A stretch of DNA of 49,612 nt from an uncultured Verrucomicrobiota bacterium (GCA_964423465.1 CAYRFK010000006.1:1-49612), one strand, 5' to 3'. Counted from the stretch's first letter, positions 29,343 to 37,949 are shown. Translations and numbers: made by a program. Notes: a model not told the origin generated them from the sequence alone.

Positions 29343-29418
<76 letters not shown>

Positions 29419-32308: not shown

Positions 32309-35300
32309 CTACTTCGCGTCTCCGGTCTCGATCCGGTATCCGAACGACTCCCCGTCGTGCCGCATGGCCAGCAGGCCGTTCGCCGTCCTGAACTCGACCG
32401 GCTTCGCCTCCGCGGCCGGGTCCATCGGTTCGGCGACAACTGTCCGCACCGAGGCCGGAGCGCCGGGCAGATGGGCGAGTCGCAGGACGATGTCGAACGT
32501 CTCGGATCCGGGCAGGGGGATCAGCCGGACACTTTTCCCCGCACGCTCGATCCGGAAGGCGCCGTCGGTGACCGCCCAACCGAAGTCGGTCTTCGTGCCC
32601 TCCGGATTCATCCACGGCGGCAGGCCGCCCGATCCCTTCGGCGGCTCGAACGTGACGGACGCCAGCGCGCCGTCCGCGGCGCGGCCGACGACCAGCGTCC
32701 CGATCCAGATGCGCCCCTCGCCGTCGTCCTCGCCGAGCAGCGGCCGGCGGCTGTGCTTGTCGTAGATGCCGGTCATGACGCGGAATCGACCTGCCGCGCC
32801 CGCAGGAATCGACGCCGTCCGCTCGAAGCTTATTGCGCCCTTCCACTCCTCGGTCGGCGGCACCGGCTTGAAGTCGTCCTGCCACGCCGTCTCGCCGAAG
32901 CCCGACGGTCCCTCCTCCTTCACGAAATGCACGAAGACCGTGTTGTTCTTCCCGGGTTTGGACTTGCAGTCCCAGGTCATCGTATAGGCCAGCCGGCCGC
33001 CCGCGACGGCTGCCGCGTCGAGCCGCGGCAGGATATGCAAGCGCCGACGATCGCCCTCCAGCGGCATCGTGCGCGCGTTGCAGAACAGGGCGCCGGGCGC
33101 CGAGGCGCGCTCCGCGATGCGGCCGGCGATCCGCTCGACCGACGCCGTCACCGCACCGGATATCACGCGCCAGCCGTTGGGCGGAAGCACCGCACCGCCG
33201 GCCGCCCAGTCGTCGCCGCCCTGGTTCACGTGGACCGTCGCGCCGTTGTCCCATTCCACGCGCTGCCGGTCGAGTCGCGCTCCGTCGAAGGCGTGCGCGG
33301 TGAGGCTGCGTTGCGCGAGCGAGCGGATCGCATCCTGCATCAGCCAGTACTTGCGGACGGCCGGCGCGCCCCACGATCCGGAGTCCACCATCAGGGAATG
33401 GCCGGCGAGCATCTCGCAGGCGAGGTACTCGTCGCTGTGGATGCCGTGTGCAGCGCGGCCGAGGCCGCCCTCGAAGCGGACCGAGTAGCCGGCGCCGTGG
33501 AGGTTGAAGCGGTGGTGGTGGACGGCGGCCATCCACGGCACGCGCGTCCACGAGCCGCACTCGAGGAAGATCGAGTGCAGCGCGGGCCGCTCGGAGGTCA
33601 GCCGCAGCCACTGGCAGTCGGCGCCGTCGAGCCAGCCGATCAACTGGTCGTGCCCGGCCTCGGAGGTGGTCGGCGCGTTGCCGCCGAGGATGTTTCGAAT
33701 CGTCTCGAAGGCCTCGCCCCAGTGACGGCGCGTCTCGGTGGACGGGTGCAGCCGGCCCTCGTGATCCCACGTGTCGATACATCCCTGCGAGGTGAAGACA
33801 TCCACAAAGCTGTGCGTGGCGCCGACACCGTCGCGGATCAGTTTCGTGTTCCGCTTCACGTACGGAAGGATCTCGTCGGGCCGCCACTTGTAGGACAGCG
33901 CGTCGCGCCCCTCGTTGTACCAGGCCCGGTTCGGCCGGCCGTCGCGCGTGAAGTAGATCTTCCGGTACGAGTACTCCGCGGCGTCGGGATAGAAGTCGAT
34001 GTAGTTGTCGTGAAGGCCCCACGGAACGTCGGCGGCGCGACAGACCGCGCCGACTTGGCGCAGGTCGTCCAGGGTTCCGTACTGCGGGTTCGGCGGCCAG
34101 ATGTCGGGCAGGCGGTAGTCGTAGCCCCAGCGCTGCCAGACGTGCATCGTCAGGAATGAATCGGAAAGGCCGTAGCGGAGCATGCGCGTCATGTTCGTGG
34201 CGACTTCGGCGTATCGGCCGCCCCAGATGTCGAAGCACATGCGTCCGGCGATGCCGGCGACGCCTCCGGCCGCCTTGCGGGGGTCGAGCGGACGGTAGGC
34301 GATCGCGCAGTCCATTGCGGTGCGGCCGGGCAGCAGCGTCAGGGTCGCGTCGTGGTGCGACTGCAGCGCATAGAGCAGCGCGGCCGGGTCCACGCGGAGG
34401 AAGTCCGGCGGATTGTCGAACGCCTGCAGCACCGCGAGGCCGTCGAACTCGGCCGCGATGTGGCTCGACGCGAGGCCGTGCCCGCCGAAGCTCTGCTGGA
34501 ACGGCTTCGGGTCGCTGACGCAGAAGCCGTGGCCCCAGAAGACGCGGGGCGCGGTGCGGTCCCACGGGCCGACGCGAAACCGCGTGATCGTGCGCGGGCA
34601 CGAGGCGGATACGCGCAGCGCCGGACCCTCGGCGCGCACGGTCAGCGTCAGGTCGAATGTCTCGCCGCCGCGGGCGAAGGAGTGGACCGTTCGCACGCGG
34701 CCGAACCGGGCGGAGGTCTCGACACCGCGGAAGGCGAACGGGGAGGGGAACCGGCCCGCCGGCGTGTCCTCGATGTCGATCTCGAAGCCGCGGAACGCCG
34801 TCGCGCCGCCGCCCTCGACGGCAAACGCGACGAGACCGTCCAGCAGGCCCTGCGGCCCCGGTTCGAGAACGACCGCCGCCTTCTTCGACGCGGCGGACGC
34901 CTCCATCAGGAACGCCGTTCGTCCGTCCGGTTTCGCGCTGCCGTCGAGAAGGGCGCGCGCCGTTCGAATGGCGGCGTCCGAGTCCCCCGGCGTCGGCGCC
35001 ACGGCCTTCCGTGCGCTCGGCCCGCCCCTGCCGGTGACCAGCGTCGGCTCGGCCCACCAGGAATGGTCGAAGGCTGTGTTCCGTTTCGGCCCCGGATCGC
35101 TTTCCAGCCGCAGCAGGACCCGGCGGCCGGCGTAGGCAGCGAGATCGACGCGACAGTCCTTCCACGCCCGCGCATCGGTGAAGTCCTCGTGGAGGGTCTT
35201 CCAGTCATTAGAGGCCGTGGCATCGGCGACGAGAACGCGGTAGCGGATGCCGTCGCTGCGCTGCTTGTCCGTCTCGCCCGAGTGATGGAGCGCGGTGGCG

Positions 35301-36019
35301 AAGGTGAGCGCAACCGGTCCGTCGGGCGGAAGATCGACGGCCCATTCGACCCAGCACTGGCCCGTCCCGCCGTGGTACGGCACGTGCATGCCCATCGCGT
35401 CGCGCGAGCCGCCGGCGTCGACGGTCTCGATCGAAAGCCCCGCGTGCGTCGCCGGGTCCTGTCCGGTCCATCCCGCCGGCTGCGAACCTGTGGCGCCCTT
35501 GTCCTGCGCCCAGCCGTAGCGATGCGTGCGGCCGATCCACAGCGGGATCGCCGAGTCCGCCTCCAACCGGAGCGCGACAGGCGCGGTGGCCGCGGGGGCG
35601 CGCGGAACAGCAGGGCGCTTCACTTCAAAGATTCGCACGGCGTGGACCGCGCCATCCCCGGAGCCGTCGCGCGAGAGATACGCGTGCACGGGGTAGGGTG
35701 CGTCGAAGACGAACGGGCCGCTCACGATGCTGAACCGTAGATTCGTCGCCGACCCCGGCGCCAGGACGACGTCCGCCGTCGCCGGGCCCCCGGCCTTCCA
35801 GTCATCCACGAAATCGCGCAGCGCCACGGTGCCGCGGAACCCGGCGGCCGCGCCGTTGCTCACCGTGACCGACACTGACGTCGGCGCCGCCGGATCGGCG
35901 ACCGGTGCGATCTCAGCGATCGCGAGTCGCATTCCGTCGACCGTCTCGTCGTACCCCGACCATCCCGCCGACAGAAGCCCCGCCGCCACCGGCACCCACG
36001 CAAATCTCGTTCCGCGCAT
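32309..36019 (-). CDS. Large secreted multidomain protein, putative glycoside hydrolase (DUF5696/GH129/GH101-like barrel)
   Basis: N-terminal signal peptide; HVWQRWGYDYRLPD, WGLHDNYIDFYPDA, FVDVFT, SEAGHD; RBS GGGGAG. Confidence 0.6.
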   Translation of the reverse strand: MRGTRFAWVPVAAGLLSAGWSGYDETVDGMRLAIAEIAPVADPAAPTSVSVTVSNGAAAGFRGTVALRDFVDDWKAGGPATADVVLAPGSATNLRFSIVSGPFVFDAPYPVHAYLSRDGSGDGAVHAVRIFEVKRPAVPRAPAATAPVALRLEADSAIPLWIGRTHRYGWAQDKGATGSQPAGWTGQDPATHAGLSIETVDAGGSRDAMGMHVPYHGGTGQCWVEWAVDLPPDGPVALTFATALHHSGETDKQRSDGIRYRVLVADATASNDWKTLHEDFTDARAWKDCRVDLAAYAGRRVLLRLESDPGPKRNTAFDHSWWAEPTLVTGRGGPSARKAVAPTPGDSDAAIRTARALLDGSAKPDGRTAFLMEASAASKKAAVVLEPGPQGLLDGLVAFAVEGGGATAFRGFEIDIEDTPAGRFPSPFAFRGVETSARFGRVRTVHSFARGGETFDLTLTVRAEGPALRVSASCPRTITRFRVGPWDRTAPRVFWGHGFCVSDPKPFQQSFGGHGLASSHIAAEFDGLAVLQAFDNPPDFLRVDPAALLYALQSHHDATLTLLPGRTAMDCAIAYRPLDPRKAAGGVAGIAGRMCFDIWGGRYAEVATNMTRMLRYGLSDSFLTMHVWQRWGYDYRLPDIWPPNPQYGTLDDLRQVGAVCRAADVPWGLHDNYIDFYPDAAEYSYRKIYFTRDGRPNRAWYNEGRDALSYKWRPDEILPYVKRNTKLIRDGVGATHSFVDVFTSQGCIDTWDHEGRLHPSTETRRHWGEAFETIRNILGGNAPTTSEAGHDQLIGWLDGADCQWLRLTSERPALHSIFLECGSWTRVPWMAAVHHHRFNLHGAGYSVRFEGGLGRAAHGIHSDEYLACEMLAGHSLMVDSGSWGAPAVRKYWLMQDAIRSLAQRSLTAHAFDGARLDRQRVEWDNGATVHVNQGGDDWAAGGAVLPPNGWRVISGAVTASVERIAGRIAERASAPGALFCNARTMPLEGDRRRLHILPRLDAAAVAGGRLAYTMTWDCKSKPGKNNTVFVHFVKEEGPSGFGETAWQDDFKPVPPTEEWKGAISFERTASIPAGAAGRFRVMTGIYDKHSRRPLLGEDDGEGRIWIGTLVVGRAADGALASVTFEPPKGSGGLPPWMNPEGTKTDFGWAVTDGAFRIERAGKSVRLIPLPGSETFDIVLRLAHLPGAPASVRTVVAEPMDPAAEAKPVEFRTANGLLAMRHDGESFGYRIETGDAK

Positions 36020-36121: not shown

Positions 36122-36161
36122 TGTAACATTATTCGATGCGGTCGCATCAAATAATGTTACA
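36122..36161. repeat. 40-bp AT-rich palindrome, copy 1
   Basis: TGTAACATTATTCGATGCG-GT-CGCATCAAATAATGTTACA; ends 9 bp before the PaaX-like ATG. Confidence 0.95.
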
Positions 36162-36170
36162 CTTCAAGAA

Positions 36171-36998
36171 ATGGAGGGCGCGGCCATGGAGTGGTTTTAT
36201 CATCCGGATTTCTGCCCGCGGATCGCGGTGCGGAGGGCGGCGGAGGAGTTGTTCGACCTGTCGGTCGGGATGATCGAACTGGTTCTTTCGCGGGGGAGGG
36301 CGGGGCTGGTCGTGCCCTCGATGACGCGGCCGGGCGAGATCCGCTACCGGATGGCGCAGCACCGGCTGCGCAAGGCCGGGTTCATCGCGTACCGCCGGAA
36401 GCGCGGGCAGCCGCCGGTGTTCCGCCTGACGCCGACGGGCGAACGGAAGGTGCCGGATCTTCTGCGCCCCGAGCGCCGGTGGAACCGCAAGTGGAGCGGC
36501 CGCTGGCAGATGCTGATCTACGACGTGCCCGAGACCGAGCGGGCCTACCGGAACCACCTCCGCCTCTTCCTGAAAGGCATGCGGATGGGGCGGCTTCAGA
36601 ACAGCGTGTGGATCACGCCGGATGACGTCCGCCCCGAATTCGCCGACCTCATGGAGGCGGCCGCCGCGAACGACTACGCGATGCTGGTCGAGGCGCGGAC
36701 CGTGCTCGGCAACAAGGGCGGGCACGTCGCGCGGATCGCCTGGGATTTCGACCGCCTGGCGGGCGGGCACGCATGGTATCTCAAGGCGGTCGACGCGGTG
36801 CTCCGCAAGGCGGCGGACCAACCGCCGACGCACGAGCAGGCATGGACGATCGTGCGCGAGGACCTCAACGCCTACCGGGCCGTCATGTGCGACGATCCGC
36901 TGCTGCCGCGTGCGCTGTGGCCCGACGGCTACCGCGGCCCCGAGGTCGCCGCCGCCCACCGCCGCCTCGTCAAAGAAGTCTGGGCCACCGTCCGCTAA
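36171..36998 (+). CDS. PaaX-family transcriptional regulator-like protein
   Basis: wHTH end RLRKAGFI..FRLTPTG; central Cas2-like domain WSGRWQMLIYDVPE..R..LR..GRLQNSVWITP; AWDFDRL; C-terminal DPLLPRALWPDGY. Confidence 0.85.
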   Translation: MEGAAMEWFYHPDFCPRIAVRRAAEELFDLSVGMIELVLSRGRAGLVVPSMTRPGEIRYRMAQHRLRKAGFIAYRRKRGQPPVFRLTPTGERKVPDLLRPERRWNRKWSGRWQMLIYDVPETERAYRNHLRLFLKGMRMGRLQNSVWITPDDVRPEFADLMEAAAANDYAMLVEARTVLGNKGGHVARIAWDFDRLAGGHAWYLKAVDAVLRKAADQPPTHEQAWTIVREDLNAYRAVMCDDPLLPRALWPDGYRGPEVAAAHRRLVKEVWATVR

Positions 36999-37018
36999 CC
37001 GCGCCGCAGGGTGCAAAG

Positions 37019-37058
37019 TGTAACATTATTCGATGCGATCGCATCCAATAATGTTACA
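37019..37058. repeat. 40-bp AT-rich palindrome, copy 2
   Basis: TGTAACATTATTCGATGCG-AT-CGCATCCAATAATGTTACA; starts 20 bp after the PaaX-like stop; 38/40 identical to copy 1. Confidence 0.95.
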
Positions 37059-37136
37059 CATCGGACGCGGGCGTGCGGCTTGCGTGCGGAGGCCGGCGTG
37101 TCCATCATCCGGGCGCAAACGATGGGAGCGGAGCAT

Positions 37137-37949
37137 ATGACGAAGGTTGTCGTGGTGGGTGCCGCGGGGCGCATGGGGCGGGCGTTGATCCGGTTCATCC
37201 GGACCGGAGCGGTGCCGGGCCTTGAACTGGCCGGCGCGGTGGACCTCTGGGACTGCCCGGAGATCAACAAGGATGCGGGCGTCATGGCCGGCGTCGGCGA
37301 GGCCGGCGTGGCCGTGACGAGCAACCTCGCGGCGGTGGCGCCGGGCGCCGACGTGATCGTCGACTTCAGCTCGCACCACGGCACCTCCGGCAACGCGCCG
37401 CGGTGTGCGGAATGGGGGAAGGCGCTCGTCGTCGGCACGACGGGGCTCAATCCGGAGCAGGAGGCCGCGGTGCGCGGCGCGGCGGCGGCGGTTCCGATCG
37501 TCATGGCGCCGAACATGAGTCTCGGCATGAACCTGCTGTTCGCGCTGATGGAGCAGGTCGGCCGGACGCTCAAGGACCGCGGCTACGACGTCGAGATCGT
37601 CGAACGGCACCACCGGCTCAAGAAGGATGCGCCGAGCGGCACCGCGCTGGGGCTCGGGCGCGCCGTCGCGAAGGGCATGGACTGGAACCTCGACGACGTG
37701 GCCGTGAACGGGCGGGAGGGTGTCTCCAAGGACATCCGCCCGGACCACCAGATCGGTTTCCACGCCGTGCGCGGCGGGGACTTCGTCGGCGATCACACGG
37801 TCATCTTCGCGACCACCGGCGAGAGCATCGAGTTCTCGCACCGCGCCACGAGTCGCGAGACCTTCGCCATCGGCGCGCTGCAGGCGGCGAAGTGGGTGGC
37901 GGGGCGCGCGCCGGGGCTGTATTCGATGCGGGATGTGCTGGGGGTGTAG
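37137..37949 (+). CDS. dapB: 4-hydroxy-tetrahydrodipicolinate reductase
   Basis: VVGAAGRMG, VDFS, VVGTTG, APNMSLG, EIVERHHRLKKDAPSGTA, RGGDFVGDH, HRATSRETFA. Confidence 0.97.
   Translation: MTKVVVVGAAGRMGRALIRFIRTGAVPGLELAGAVDLWDCPEINKDAGVMAGVGEAGVAVTSNLAAVAPGADVIVDFSSHHGTSGNAPRCAEWGKALVVGTTGLNPEQEAAVRGAAAAVPIVMAPNMSLGMNLLFALMEQVGRTLKDRGYDVEIVERHHRLKKDAPSGTALGLGRAVAKGMDWNLDDVAVNGREGVSKDIRPDHQIGFHAVRGGDFVGDHTVIFATTGESIEFSHRATSRETFAIGALQAAKWVAGRAPGLYSMRDVLGV

Follow-up and report, generated by a model that had tools for sequence, protein, structure and literature searches.

The gene for the CI repressor of phage lambda lies between its own operator sets, OL and OR, which loop together for autoregulation, and invertase systems are known in which a gene is placed between two palindromic crossover sites. 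PaaX of Escherichia coli has a 39-bp site, TGATTC(N27)GAATCA, and represses its own promoter, according to a review (PMC9493321). Repetitive extragenic palindromes (REPs) usually number >100 copies per genome (PMC2817692). Here, we describe a paaX-like gene that stands between two near-identical 40-bp palindromes in a 49,612-nucleotide stretch of DNA from an uncultured Verrucomicrobiota bacterium (GCA_964423465.1, CAYRFK010000006.1:1-49612); this whole stretch, hereafter the window, is contig C6 of assembly G000 (5.35 Mb, 426 contigs, 88% complete). The genome holds four PaaX_M genes, and each of them (4/4) has on either side a copy of a palindrome class of its own. We consider it reasonably probable, from sequence comparison, that these genes encode paralogous, autoregulated PaaX-type repressors with 40-bp long-dyad operators, the 3' copy being an operator intrinsic to the cassette that would serve for looping or as a roadblock.

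The locus resembles the E. coli system, whose repressor is released from its operator by phenylacetyl-CoA, in that its protein carries both PaaX_M and PaaX_C and its dyad is long with short outer inverted arms, arranged as 7-N26-7 here and as 6-N27-6 in E. coli; the likeness in span that an earlier note on this DNA had drawn thus holds, at 40 bp against 39 bp. It differs from that system in that (i) the dyad extends over the full 40 bp, around a conserved core, (ii) the gene is bracketed on both sides, (iii) several paralogs per genome have site classes of their own, (iv) a Cas2-type aspartate is invariant, and (v) the genome yielded no paa oxygenase. The comparison with lambda CI is one of layout, as the folds are unrelated and the lambda operators are arrays of 17-bp sites that lie 2-3 kb apart in a prophage, whereas here single 40-bp dyads lie ∼0.9 kb apart in chromosomal cassettes and many further sites stand alone.

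Two palindromes bracket a PaaX-like gene

The features that make up the cassette in the window are as follows.

36122-36161, no strand assigned: upstream palindrome (class A), 102 bp from the start of a divergent 1236-aa gene, and separated by 24 bp from the likely start of the paaX-like gene
36173-36178, plus strand: GGAGGG, likely ribosome-binding site for the ATG at 36186, read from the sequence 7 nt ahead of that ATG
36186-36998, plus strand: PaaX-like gene, 270 aa, with a putative N-terminal winged-helix region, a Cas2-like PaaX_M domain, and PaaX_C
37019-37058, no strand assigned: downstream palindrome (class A), 20 bp past the stop of the paaX-like gene and 78 bp before the ATG of dapB

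The two palindromes are identical at 38/40 positions, differing at position 20 (G/A) and position 28 (A/C), and their symmetric positions form complementary pairs in 18/20 cases upstream and in 19/20 cases downstream. Their GC contents of 0.35 and 0.38 contrast with 0.669 genome-wide, and the pattern given in the earlier note occurs at exactly two places in the window (each on both strands), with no occurrence in 100 dinucleotide-preserving shuffles. The reading frame is open from an ATG at 36171 (275 aa), which begins 9 bp past the end of the upstream palindrome, to the stop at 36998. However, the in-frame ATG at 36186, 24 bp past the palindrome, is likely the true start, because GGAGGG lies 7 nt before it, most homologs measure 267-270 aa, and it is from this point that their N-termini align. 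The coordinates bear out what the earlier note had said of the 38/40 identity, the 9-bp and 20-bp spacings, and the AT-richness of the palindromes (35-38% GC vs 67%); the matching inverted flanks that face the gene (CTT/AAG) are also present, as a mere extension of the palindrome.

The central dinucleotide of class A sites is asymmetric and varies among copies (GT in 9, AC in 3, and AT in 4 of the 16 sites of this genome); the window copies are centered on GT (36141-36142) and AT (37038-37039), and a congener, G001, has mostly AT. As the class A site is otherwise symmetric, its orientation is given by this dinucleotide, without obvious relation to gene direction.

Four paralogs and their site classes

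The earlier note had proposed that further palindromes, and paralogs with flanking dyads of their own, might be found in the genome. This was borne out by a scan with six class consensus motifs (≤10 mismatches), which returned 66 palindromes (A, 16; B, 12; C, 23; C', 4; D, 6; and E, 5), while the reversed-consensus control returned none. The classes that accompany the four genes are listed by contig.

C6, class A: arms/core TGTAACATTA...GCGRYCGC
C89, class B: arms/core TGTAACATCC...GTACGATCGTAC
C270, class C: arms/core TGTTACA-N5-TGTAACGATCGTTACA-N5-TGTAACA
C106, class D: arms/core TTGTCAGA...CCGGCCGG

Every class has an invariant outer box, a variable spacer of 4-6 bp, and an invariant inner box that runs up to the center. 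Classes C' and C have the inner box in common, classes E and D the outer box, and no fifth PaaX-like gene was found in the genome; plausibly, then, the four proteins serve four superclasses (A, B, C+C', and D+E) of 11-27 sites each. Copy number per class is 4-23 in this genome, 12-24 in its congeners, and 5 in Pontiella sulfatireligans (one class).

Sites of the same class often form tandem pairs or triplets, ∼90-135 bp apart, ahead of one gene (in G000, C53:15128/15219, C122:4304/4393, C76:17566/17701, and C43:6662/6782; in the congener G002, C34:177/284/393 and C72:23162/23271), and such tandem sites may reflect cooperative binding or local duplication.

Bracketing in related genomes

A PaaX-like gene was found in 10 of 41 related genomes (this one counted), and the homologs come from sources named Kiritimatiellae, Pontiella, or Pontiellaceae. 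Among the 17 loci outside the present genome, six are bracketed, four have one site (two of them at a contig end), two have two upstream sites, and five have none. In a wider sample of 70 loci, 66 could be assessed on both sides, of which 46 are bracketed, 7 have an upstream site only, 4 a downstream site only, and 9 neither. All three paralogs of the cultured Pontiella sulfatireligans F21 are bracketed (3/3), and the five sites that this strain has for one class amount to a regulon-sized set. The palindrome center is ACGATCGT in 62/107 sites and ACGGCCGT in 17/107, the family-wide core being CGATCG or CGGCCG, whereas the arms vary between lineages. Upstream sites mostly end 2-35 bp before the start of the protein match, and downstream sites mostly begin 4-70 bp past its end.

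Gene order in Pontiellaceae places the 3' copy in a telling context: a divergent gene for a pyridoxal phosphate (PLP) enzyme, a site, the paaX-like gene, a site, and a convergent tRNA-synt_1c gene, as seen by Pfam at 3/3 loci tested (orientations taken from longest open reading frames (ORFs) in other genomes mis-assign high-GC loci, and were used only where Pfam agreed). Since that neighbor is convergent, the 3' site in this context is not the operator of a downstream promoter, and because the 3' copy often lies between convergent genes, it is read as intrinsic to the cassette. The first hypothesis of the earlier note, that the palindromes are operators, fits best among the readings, given the pairing of paralogs with classes, the PaaX-box span, and the 5' placement of the sites. 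Its narrower form, with one operator for the gene itself and one for dapB, is too narrow for a 3' copy that is found family-wide (46/66 loci) and is often convergent. Nor is control of dapB a general role, as dapB was found with neither a paaX-like gene nor such a palindrome within 1.5 kb in 10/10 genomes from other genera in the same family.

In P. sulfatireligans F21 (L181:3303-5750), one of the paaX-like paralogs and its 3' palindrome precede, in the same direction, an AEP-TOTE primase/helicase gene belonging to a conflict system. Two contigs (L193 and L194), labeled as Gammaproteobacteria and Saccharibacteria metagenome-assembled genomes, carry partial PaaX-like matches close to palindromes centered on CGGCCG or CGATCG; these could be cases of mis-binning or of horizontal spread.

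Features of the PaaX-like protein

The window protein matches PaaX_M (PF20803) with an E value of 1.6e-22 (79.8 bits against a cut-off of 24), as do all four paralogs, and PaaX_C (PF08223) with an E value of 1.7e-8 (35.1 bits against 22). It is the only one of the four paralogs to match PaaX_C at E ≤ 1e-5, although the invariant DPLLP motif aligns in the other three. Among solved structures, the one nearest to it is E. coli PaaX (8A39; E value 1e-5 with a single sequence and 4.6e-13 with a profile), and 3KFW from Mycobacterium tuberculosis is also among the nearest. The HMMER alignment with 8A39 begins at residue 50-53 and takes in a segment resembling a helix plus wing, which is variable between paralogs; matches of ArsR/MarR-type profiles are weak (E 1.1-1.5). 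As the earlier note had remarked, no phenylacetate genes are nearby, the neighbors being the 1236-aa gene and dapB, and the 88%-complete genome gave no PaaA_PaaC match for the oxygenase. The protein is a member of the PaaX superfamily but not the phenylacetate regulator.

The Cas2-like character of the central domain, to which the earlier note had pointed, is borne out by a retained Cas2 signature and by weak matches of Cas2 models. Asp113 is invariant in 20/20 aligned homologs and aligns with the aspartate of the YDI motif in the Cas2 protein SSO1404 (profile E value 0.077), whereas this position holds Glu in E. coli PaaX and Thr in 3KFW; in Cas2, the conserved aspartate at the end of strand 1 is the metal site. 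Cas2 models match all four paralogs (E 1e-4 to 8e-3), and TIGR01573 (Cas2) is not reached, at 20.1 bits against a cut-off of 24.5. The likeness to Cas2 (SSO1404, 2IVY) extends over the strand-helix-strand signature, namely YD with the aspartate, the arginines, and Q-x-S-V-F/W. However, here the domain is fused between a putative winged helix-turn-helix (wHTH) and PaaX_C, its matches lie under the curated cut-off, a search of the 88%-complete genome yielded no Cas1, and no CRISPR context was seen. The searched literature held nothing that links Kiritimatiellota with PaaX and nothing on this PaaX/Cas2-like architecture; PMC3506569 mentions Cas2-like proteins but not PaaX.

Placement of the sites and adjoining genes

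The raw contexts of the 66 sites are tandem (37), divergent (12), convergent (7), inside gene calls (6), and at contig ends (4); we read the six inside sites as over-called starts or wrong-strand calls, and the others as intergenic. These tallies are rough, as the gene calls came from a simple ORF/codon-score caller that got several loci wrong, missing for example the paaX-like genes on C89 and C106, and they were amended only where Pfam supported the neighbor. Convergent sites are under-represented in the raw calls (7/56, against 23.8% expected; p = 0.027), and about four of them are left after the Pfam-supported amendments, two of which belong to the paaX-like genes on C89 and C270, as their 3' copies. 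Most sites face the 5' ends of genes that are functionally unrelated, and many end 1-30 bp ahead of a start codon.

Class A sites adjoin genes for two sulfatases, GH127, an M60 peptidase, a pectate-lyase-like protein, GDPD, YceI, DUF480, and dapB. Class B sites adjoin genes for a sulfatase, Iso_dh, an ABC ATPase, ThiD, and carbonic anhydrase, as well as rpoZ. The genes beside class C sites include those for a class II tRNA synthetase, fumarase, ResB/CcsA, an extracytoplasmic function (ECF) sigma factor, radical-SAM enzymes, and a sulfatase, aroQ, and others. The two neighbors of the window cassette are as follows.

32309-36019, minus strand: divergent 1236-aa gene with a weak DUF5696 match under the cut-off, possible target of the upstream site
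37137-37949, plus strand: dapB, co-directional neighbor, candidate for control by the downstream site, in this genus alone

Some further observations concern single loci. The genes for the N-terminal and C-terminal subunits of fumarase diverge from a class C palindrome (G000 C226:2413-4068), which is an unusual arrangement for the halves of one enzyme. Another 40-bp palindrome, unrelated and GC-rich, lies at G000 C2:68788-68827; its loop is AT-rich and it is terminator-like in appearance, and G001 has a class A-type site in this intergenic region. Rfam, applied to the whole window, returned a tRNA gene (29346-29418, minus strand) as its sole match.

The sites that end 1-30 bp ahead of a start codon would also suit an element that acts in RNA, where hairpins in the 5' and 3' untranslated regions would be bound or cut by the Cas2-like domain, or would act without a protein as stabilizers or bidirectional terminators, to control translation or mRNA stability. 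A 3' site between convergent genes, as is often the case, would place the same hairpin on both transcripts, and the hairpins are predicted to be stable (as DNA, -12.8 kcal/mol with a z score of -6.8 upstream, and -14.9 kcal/mol with a z score of -8.6 downstream). An RNA-library contig (36919-37069), moreover, runs from the 3' end of the gene through the downstream palindrome, although RNA libraries can contain DNA and the contigs show no transcript ends. Against this account, neither palindrome has a U-tract or a terminator-like call. Mismatches counted by gene direction show no bias of G-T over A-C (28 vs 35 upstream and 35 vs 30 downstream), which argues against selection on a hairpin in sense-strand RNA. 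Finally, a simple hairpin could do without class-specific sequences that recur in both the 5' and the 3' copy and that pair off with paralogous DNA-binding proteins. We therefore regard an RNA-level role as quite improbable.

Transcript and rearrangement data

Four sequencing runs were available as Logan contigs, in which rare variants are dropped: two of DNA and two of RNA, the latter a metatranscriptome of one sample. RNA-library contigs cover parts of the paaX-like gene and dapB; they leave 36122-36190 uncovered, and those over dapB begin at 37122 and 37126, which we did not take as evidence of transcription starts, since they come from one sample.

The same runs bear on an invertible or excisable switch, in which the ∼0.9-kb segment between the palindromes would flip or be cut out. 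The layout invites such a reading, with near-identical palindromes around a segment of that length that encodes the presumed site-binding protein, and with central dinucleotides in class A (GT, AC, or AT) that are asymmetric and differ between copies. However, contigs from the four runs contained no inversion or excision joint, the four genomes of the genus all carry the segment in one orientation, domain profile searches found no recombinase or transposase domain in the window protein, and a switch would leave the many solo sites unexplained. This explanation is, in our judgment, very improbable indeed.

Synteny and site turnover

The earlier note had raised the prospect of an empty site between the hydrolase and dapB in relatives; instead, the cassette is present in 4/4 genomes of the genus, collinear in the order hydrolase, paaX-like gene, and dapB, and never inverted. 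Class A sites number 12 in G001, 20 in G002, and 24 in G003, the three congeners (reversed-pattern control, 0), and in three species such sites persist at orthologous positions as the intergenic DNA around them diverges. Other sites have no counterpart, as a comparison of regions with G000 showed.

G002, 14 regions: G000 site at the orthologous place, 6; contiguous in G000 without a site, 3; unresolved, 5
G003, 20 regions: G000 site at the orthologous place, 8; contiguous in G000 without a site, 3; unresolved, 9

Four G000 loci (on C122, C2, C9, and C162) lack a site that is carried by G002 and/or G003, and a second place on C2 lacks a G001 site. At the G000 places that are empty relative to G002 and G003, no decayed remnant was found, the best match having 21/40 mismatches. 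Neither a clean 40-bp insertion nor a target duplication could be defined at the empty loci, where indels of 110-250 bp lie in fast-diverging intergenic DNA.

One species has changed its sites throughout. In G001, 12/12 sites have TGTATCA...TGATACA arms, including the two at the orthologous cassette, and of the ten sites outside the cassette none (0/10) coincides with a class A locus of G000; the G001 ortholog differs in the helix-wing segment, for example by a change of Ile/Val to Thr in GE[IV]RY. Identical 40-mers also occur at separate loci within a genome, in 5/12 class B sites and 3/23 class C sites of G000, and similarity between site copies stops at the palindrome edge. The identical copies, the sites at non-orthologous loci, and the genome-wide arm switch in one species together suggest that sites spread when existing ones are copied, since point mutation is unlikely to give rise repeatedly to sites so rich in information.

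Two local arrangements in the congeners may be added. At one locus of G002 (L098, C44, ∼1950-2520), a unit of ∼120 bp, made up of the palindrome with ∼60 bp of left and 20 bp of right flank, is duplicated ∼384 bp apart. The flanks of a class A site in G001, G002, and G003 map to opposite ends of G000 contig C3 (∼6-1095 and 63809-64951), which may reflect an assembly break at a palindrome or a contig that closes on itself.

Dyad symmetry

Complementarity of symmetric positions exceeds that of column shuffles in three classes: in class A it is 0.834 against a shuffle mean of 0.808 (reached by 48/2000 shuffles), in class B 0.938 against 0.879 (4/2000), and in class C 0.870 against 0.815 (0/2000). 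Between 5' and 3' copies, 76/920 position pairs are changed on both sides, where a naive independent expectation that ignores rate differences between positions is 21.5, and 45 of these 76 are complementary in both copies. Such symmetry could stem from copy ancestry, from a cruciform or hairpin form of the DNA, or from quasipalindrome template-switch correction, a process that is able to symmetrize arms without selection.

Proposed mode of action and its standing

We propose that the PaaX-family protein has its cognate binding sites in the two palindromes that flank its gene. A dimer would set its two winged-helix domains on the outer arms, TGTAACA...TGTTACA, 26 bp apart, much as E. coli PaaX does, while a conserved part of the protein would read the CGATCG/CGGCCG core, and the variable arms would give each paralog its own set of sites. 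The site next to the start codon of the regulator gene would provide for autoregulation by repression, perhaps under the control of a ligand, and the other sites would put the promoters of heterogeneous genes (those for sulfatases, glycoside hydrolases, and a tRNA synthetase, together with dapB, rpoZ, and aroQ) under its control. The 3' copy, which in this genus also lies upstream of dapB, would most likely be a second autoregulatory operator that loops out the ∼0.9-kb gene, or else a protein roadblock or insulator at the 3' end. New sites would arise by the copying of existing ones.

Several results weigh against this operator reading. On the side of the protein, the Pfam model of the N-terminal PaaX domain has no match in the window protein at E ≤ 0.01, and the NCBIfam equivalog model of PaaX (TIGR02277) is not reached, at 64.2 bits against a cut-off of 264.55. 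On the side of the sites, the adjoining genes share no common pathway, and a scan for consensus sigma-70 promoters around the cassette returned 0 sites. Further, a plain operator model leaves three things unexplained, namely (i) the 3' copy that is kept even between convergent genes, (ii) the excess co-variation of symmetric positions over shuffles, and (iii) the 11 of 14 matches in one genome, G027, that are a single identical 40-mer with unrelated flanks.

A rival explanation is a selfish or domesticated system resembling REPs and their associated tyrosine transposases (RAYTs). Its palindromes would be short mobile DNA, recognized as hairpins or cruciforms, which the Cas2-like domain nicks or processes and so copies into new positions between genes. 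The autonomous unit would consist of the gene and the copy on either side of it, and effects on gene regulation would be secondary. The layout described for REPs and RAYTs is shared, in that the palindromes on either side of a single-copy gene also occur as solo copies scattered between genes, with one class per paralog and an evolution that looks concerted within a genome. The identical 40-mers in G027 and G000, the G001 arm switch with its want of shared loci, the G002 and G003 sites without a remnant in G000, the compensatory changes that keep the dyad between 5' and 3' copies, and the retained Cas2 signature with Asp113 all accord with such a system.

However, much else tells against a REP/RAYT-like system. 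The cassette is syntenic and never inverted in the genus, the four runs (contigs only) gave no joints, and neither a clean empty site nor a target duplication was seen. Copies number 5-27 per class, against the >100 stated for REPs (PMC2817692). The dyads here are perfect and 40 bp long, whereas REPs are imperfect palindromes of 20-40 bp arranged in doublets (REPINs). The sites favor the 5' side of genes rather than 3' ends, and the protein is of the wHTH/Cas2-like regulator type with no transposase fold, not a Y1 transposase. The genome has four weak matches to Y1_Tnp (best 29.5 bits), none of them next to any palindrome; these IS200/RAYT-type loci lie at C271:1648-1866, C8:29042-29263, C10:73-282, and C182:4367-4597. 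The symmetrized arms, too, could come from quasipalindrome template switching without selection. On balance, we hold a REP/RAYT-like system to be unlikely. The mobile cassette that the earlier note had offered as its second hypothesis is likewise contradicted, on the terms that the note itself had set, by a gene that is syntenic in 4/4 genomes and a motif that occurs singly before many unrelated genes, and its excision or inversion finds no joint; its copy-and-spread component, on the other hand, is kept in play by the identical copies, the non-orthologous sites, the arm switch, and the Cas2 signature.

The operator reading and this component could be combined. In a self-propagating regulator-operator system, which we put forward as an unlikely proposal from the sequences at hand, the Cas2-type domain with its invariant aspartate would act on a hairpin or cruciform of its own site, copy that site into promoter regions, and so recruit genes to the regulon, while the bracketed cassette would be the autonomous unit that duplicates and diversifies into orthogonal classes of protein and site.

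Implications for Kiritimatiellota

Kiritimatiellota are major anaerobic degraders of sulfated polysaccharides and carry hundreds of sulfatase genes, and to our knowledge regulation in this group is almost unstudied. The regulators and palindromes described here form a candidate set of orthogonal regulator/operator pairs, with 40-bp sites that are highly specific and several pairs per genome, and they are present in cultured Pontiella. Few transcription factors would be expected to have their gene bracketed family-wide by their own sites, and the evidence that information-rich sites appear at new loci and change in concert is likewise unusual; both bear on the rewiring of regulons. Activity of the Cas2-like domain on the palindromes, if it exists, would be a non-CRISPR role for the Cas2 fold, and a self-propagating system, if true, would be a route to mobile operators and rapid regulon rewiring that does not involve a transposase.

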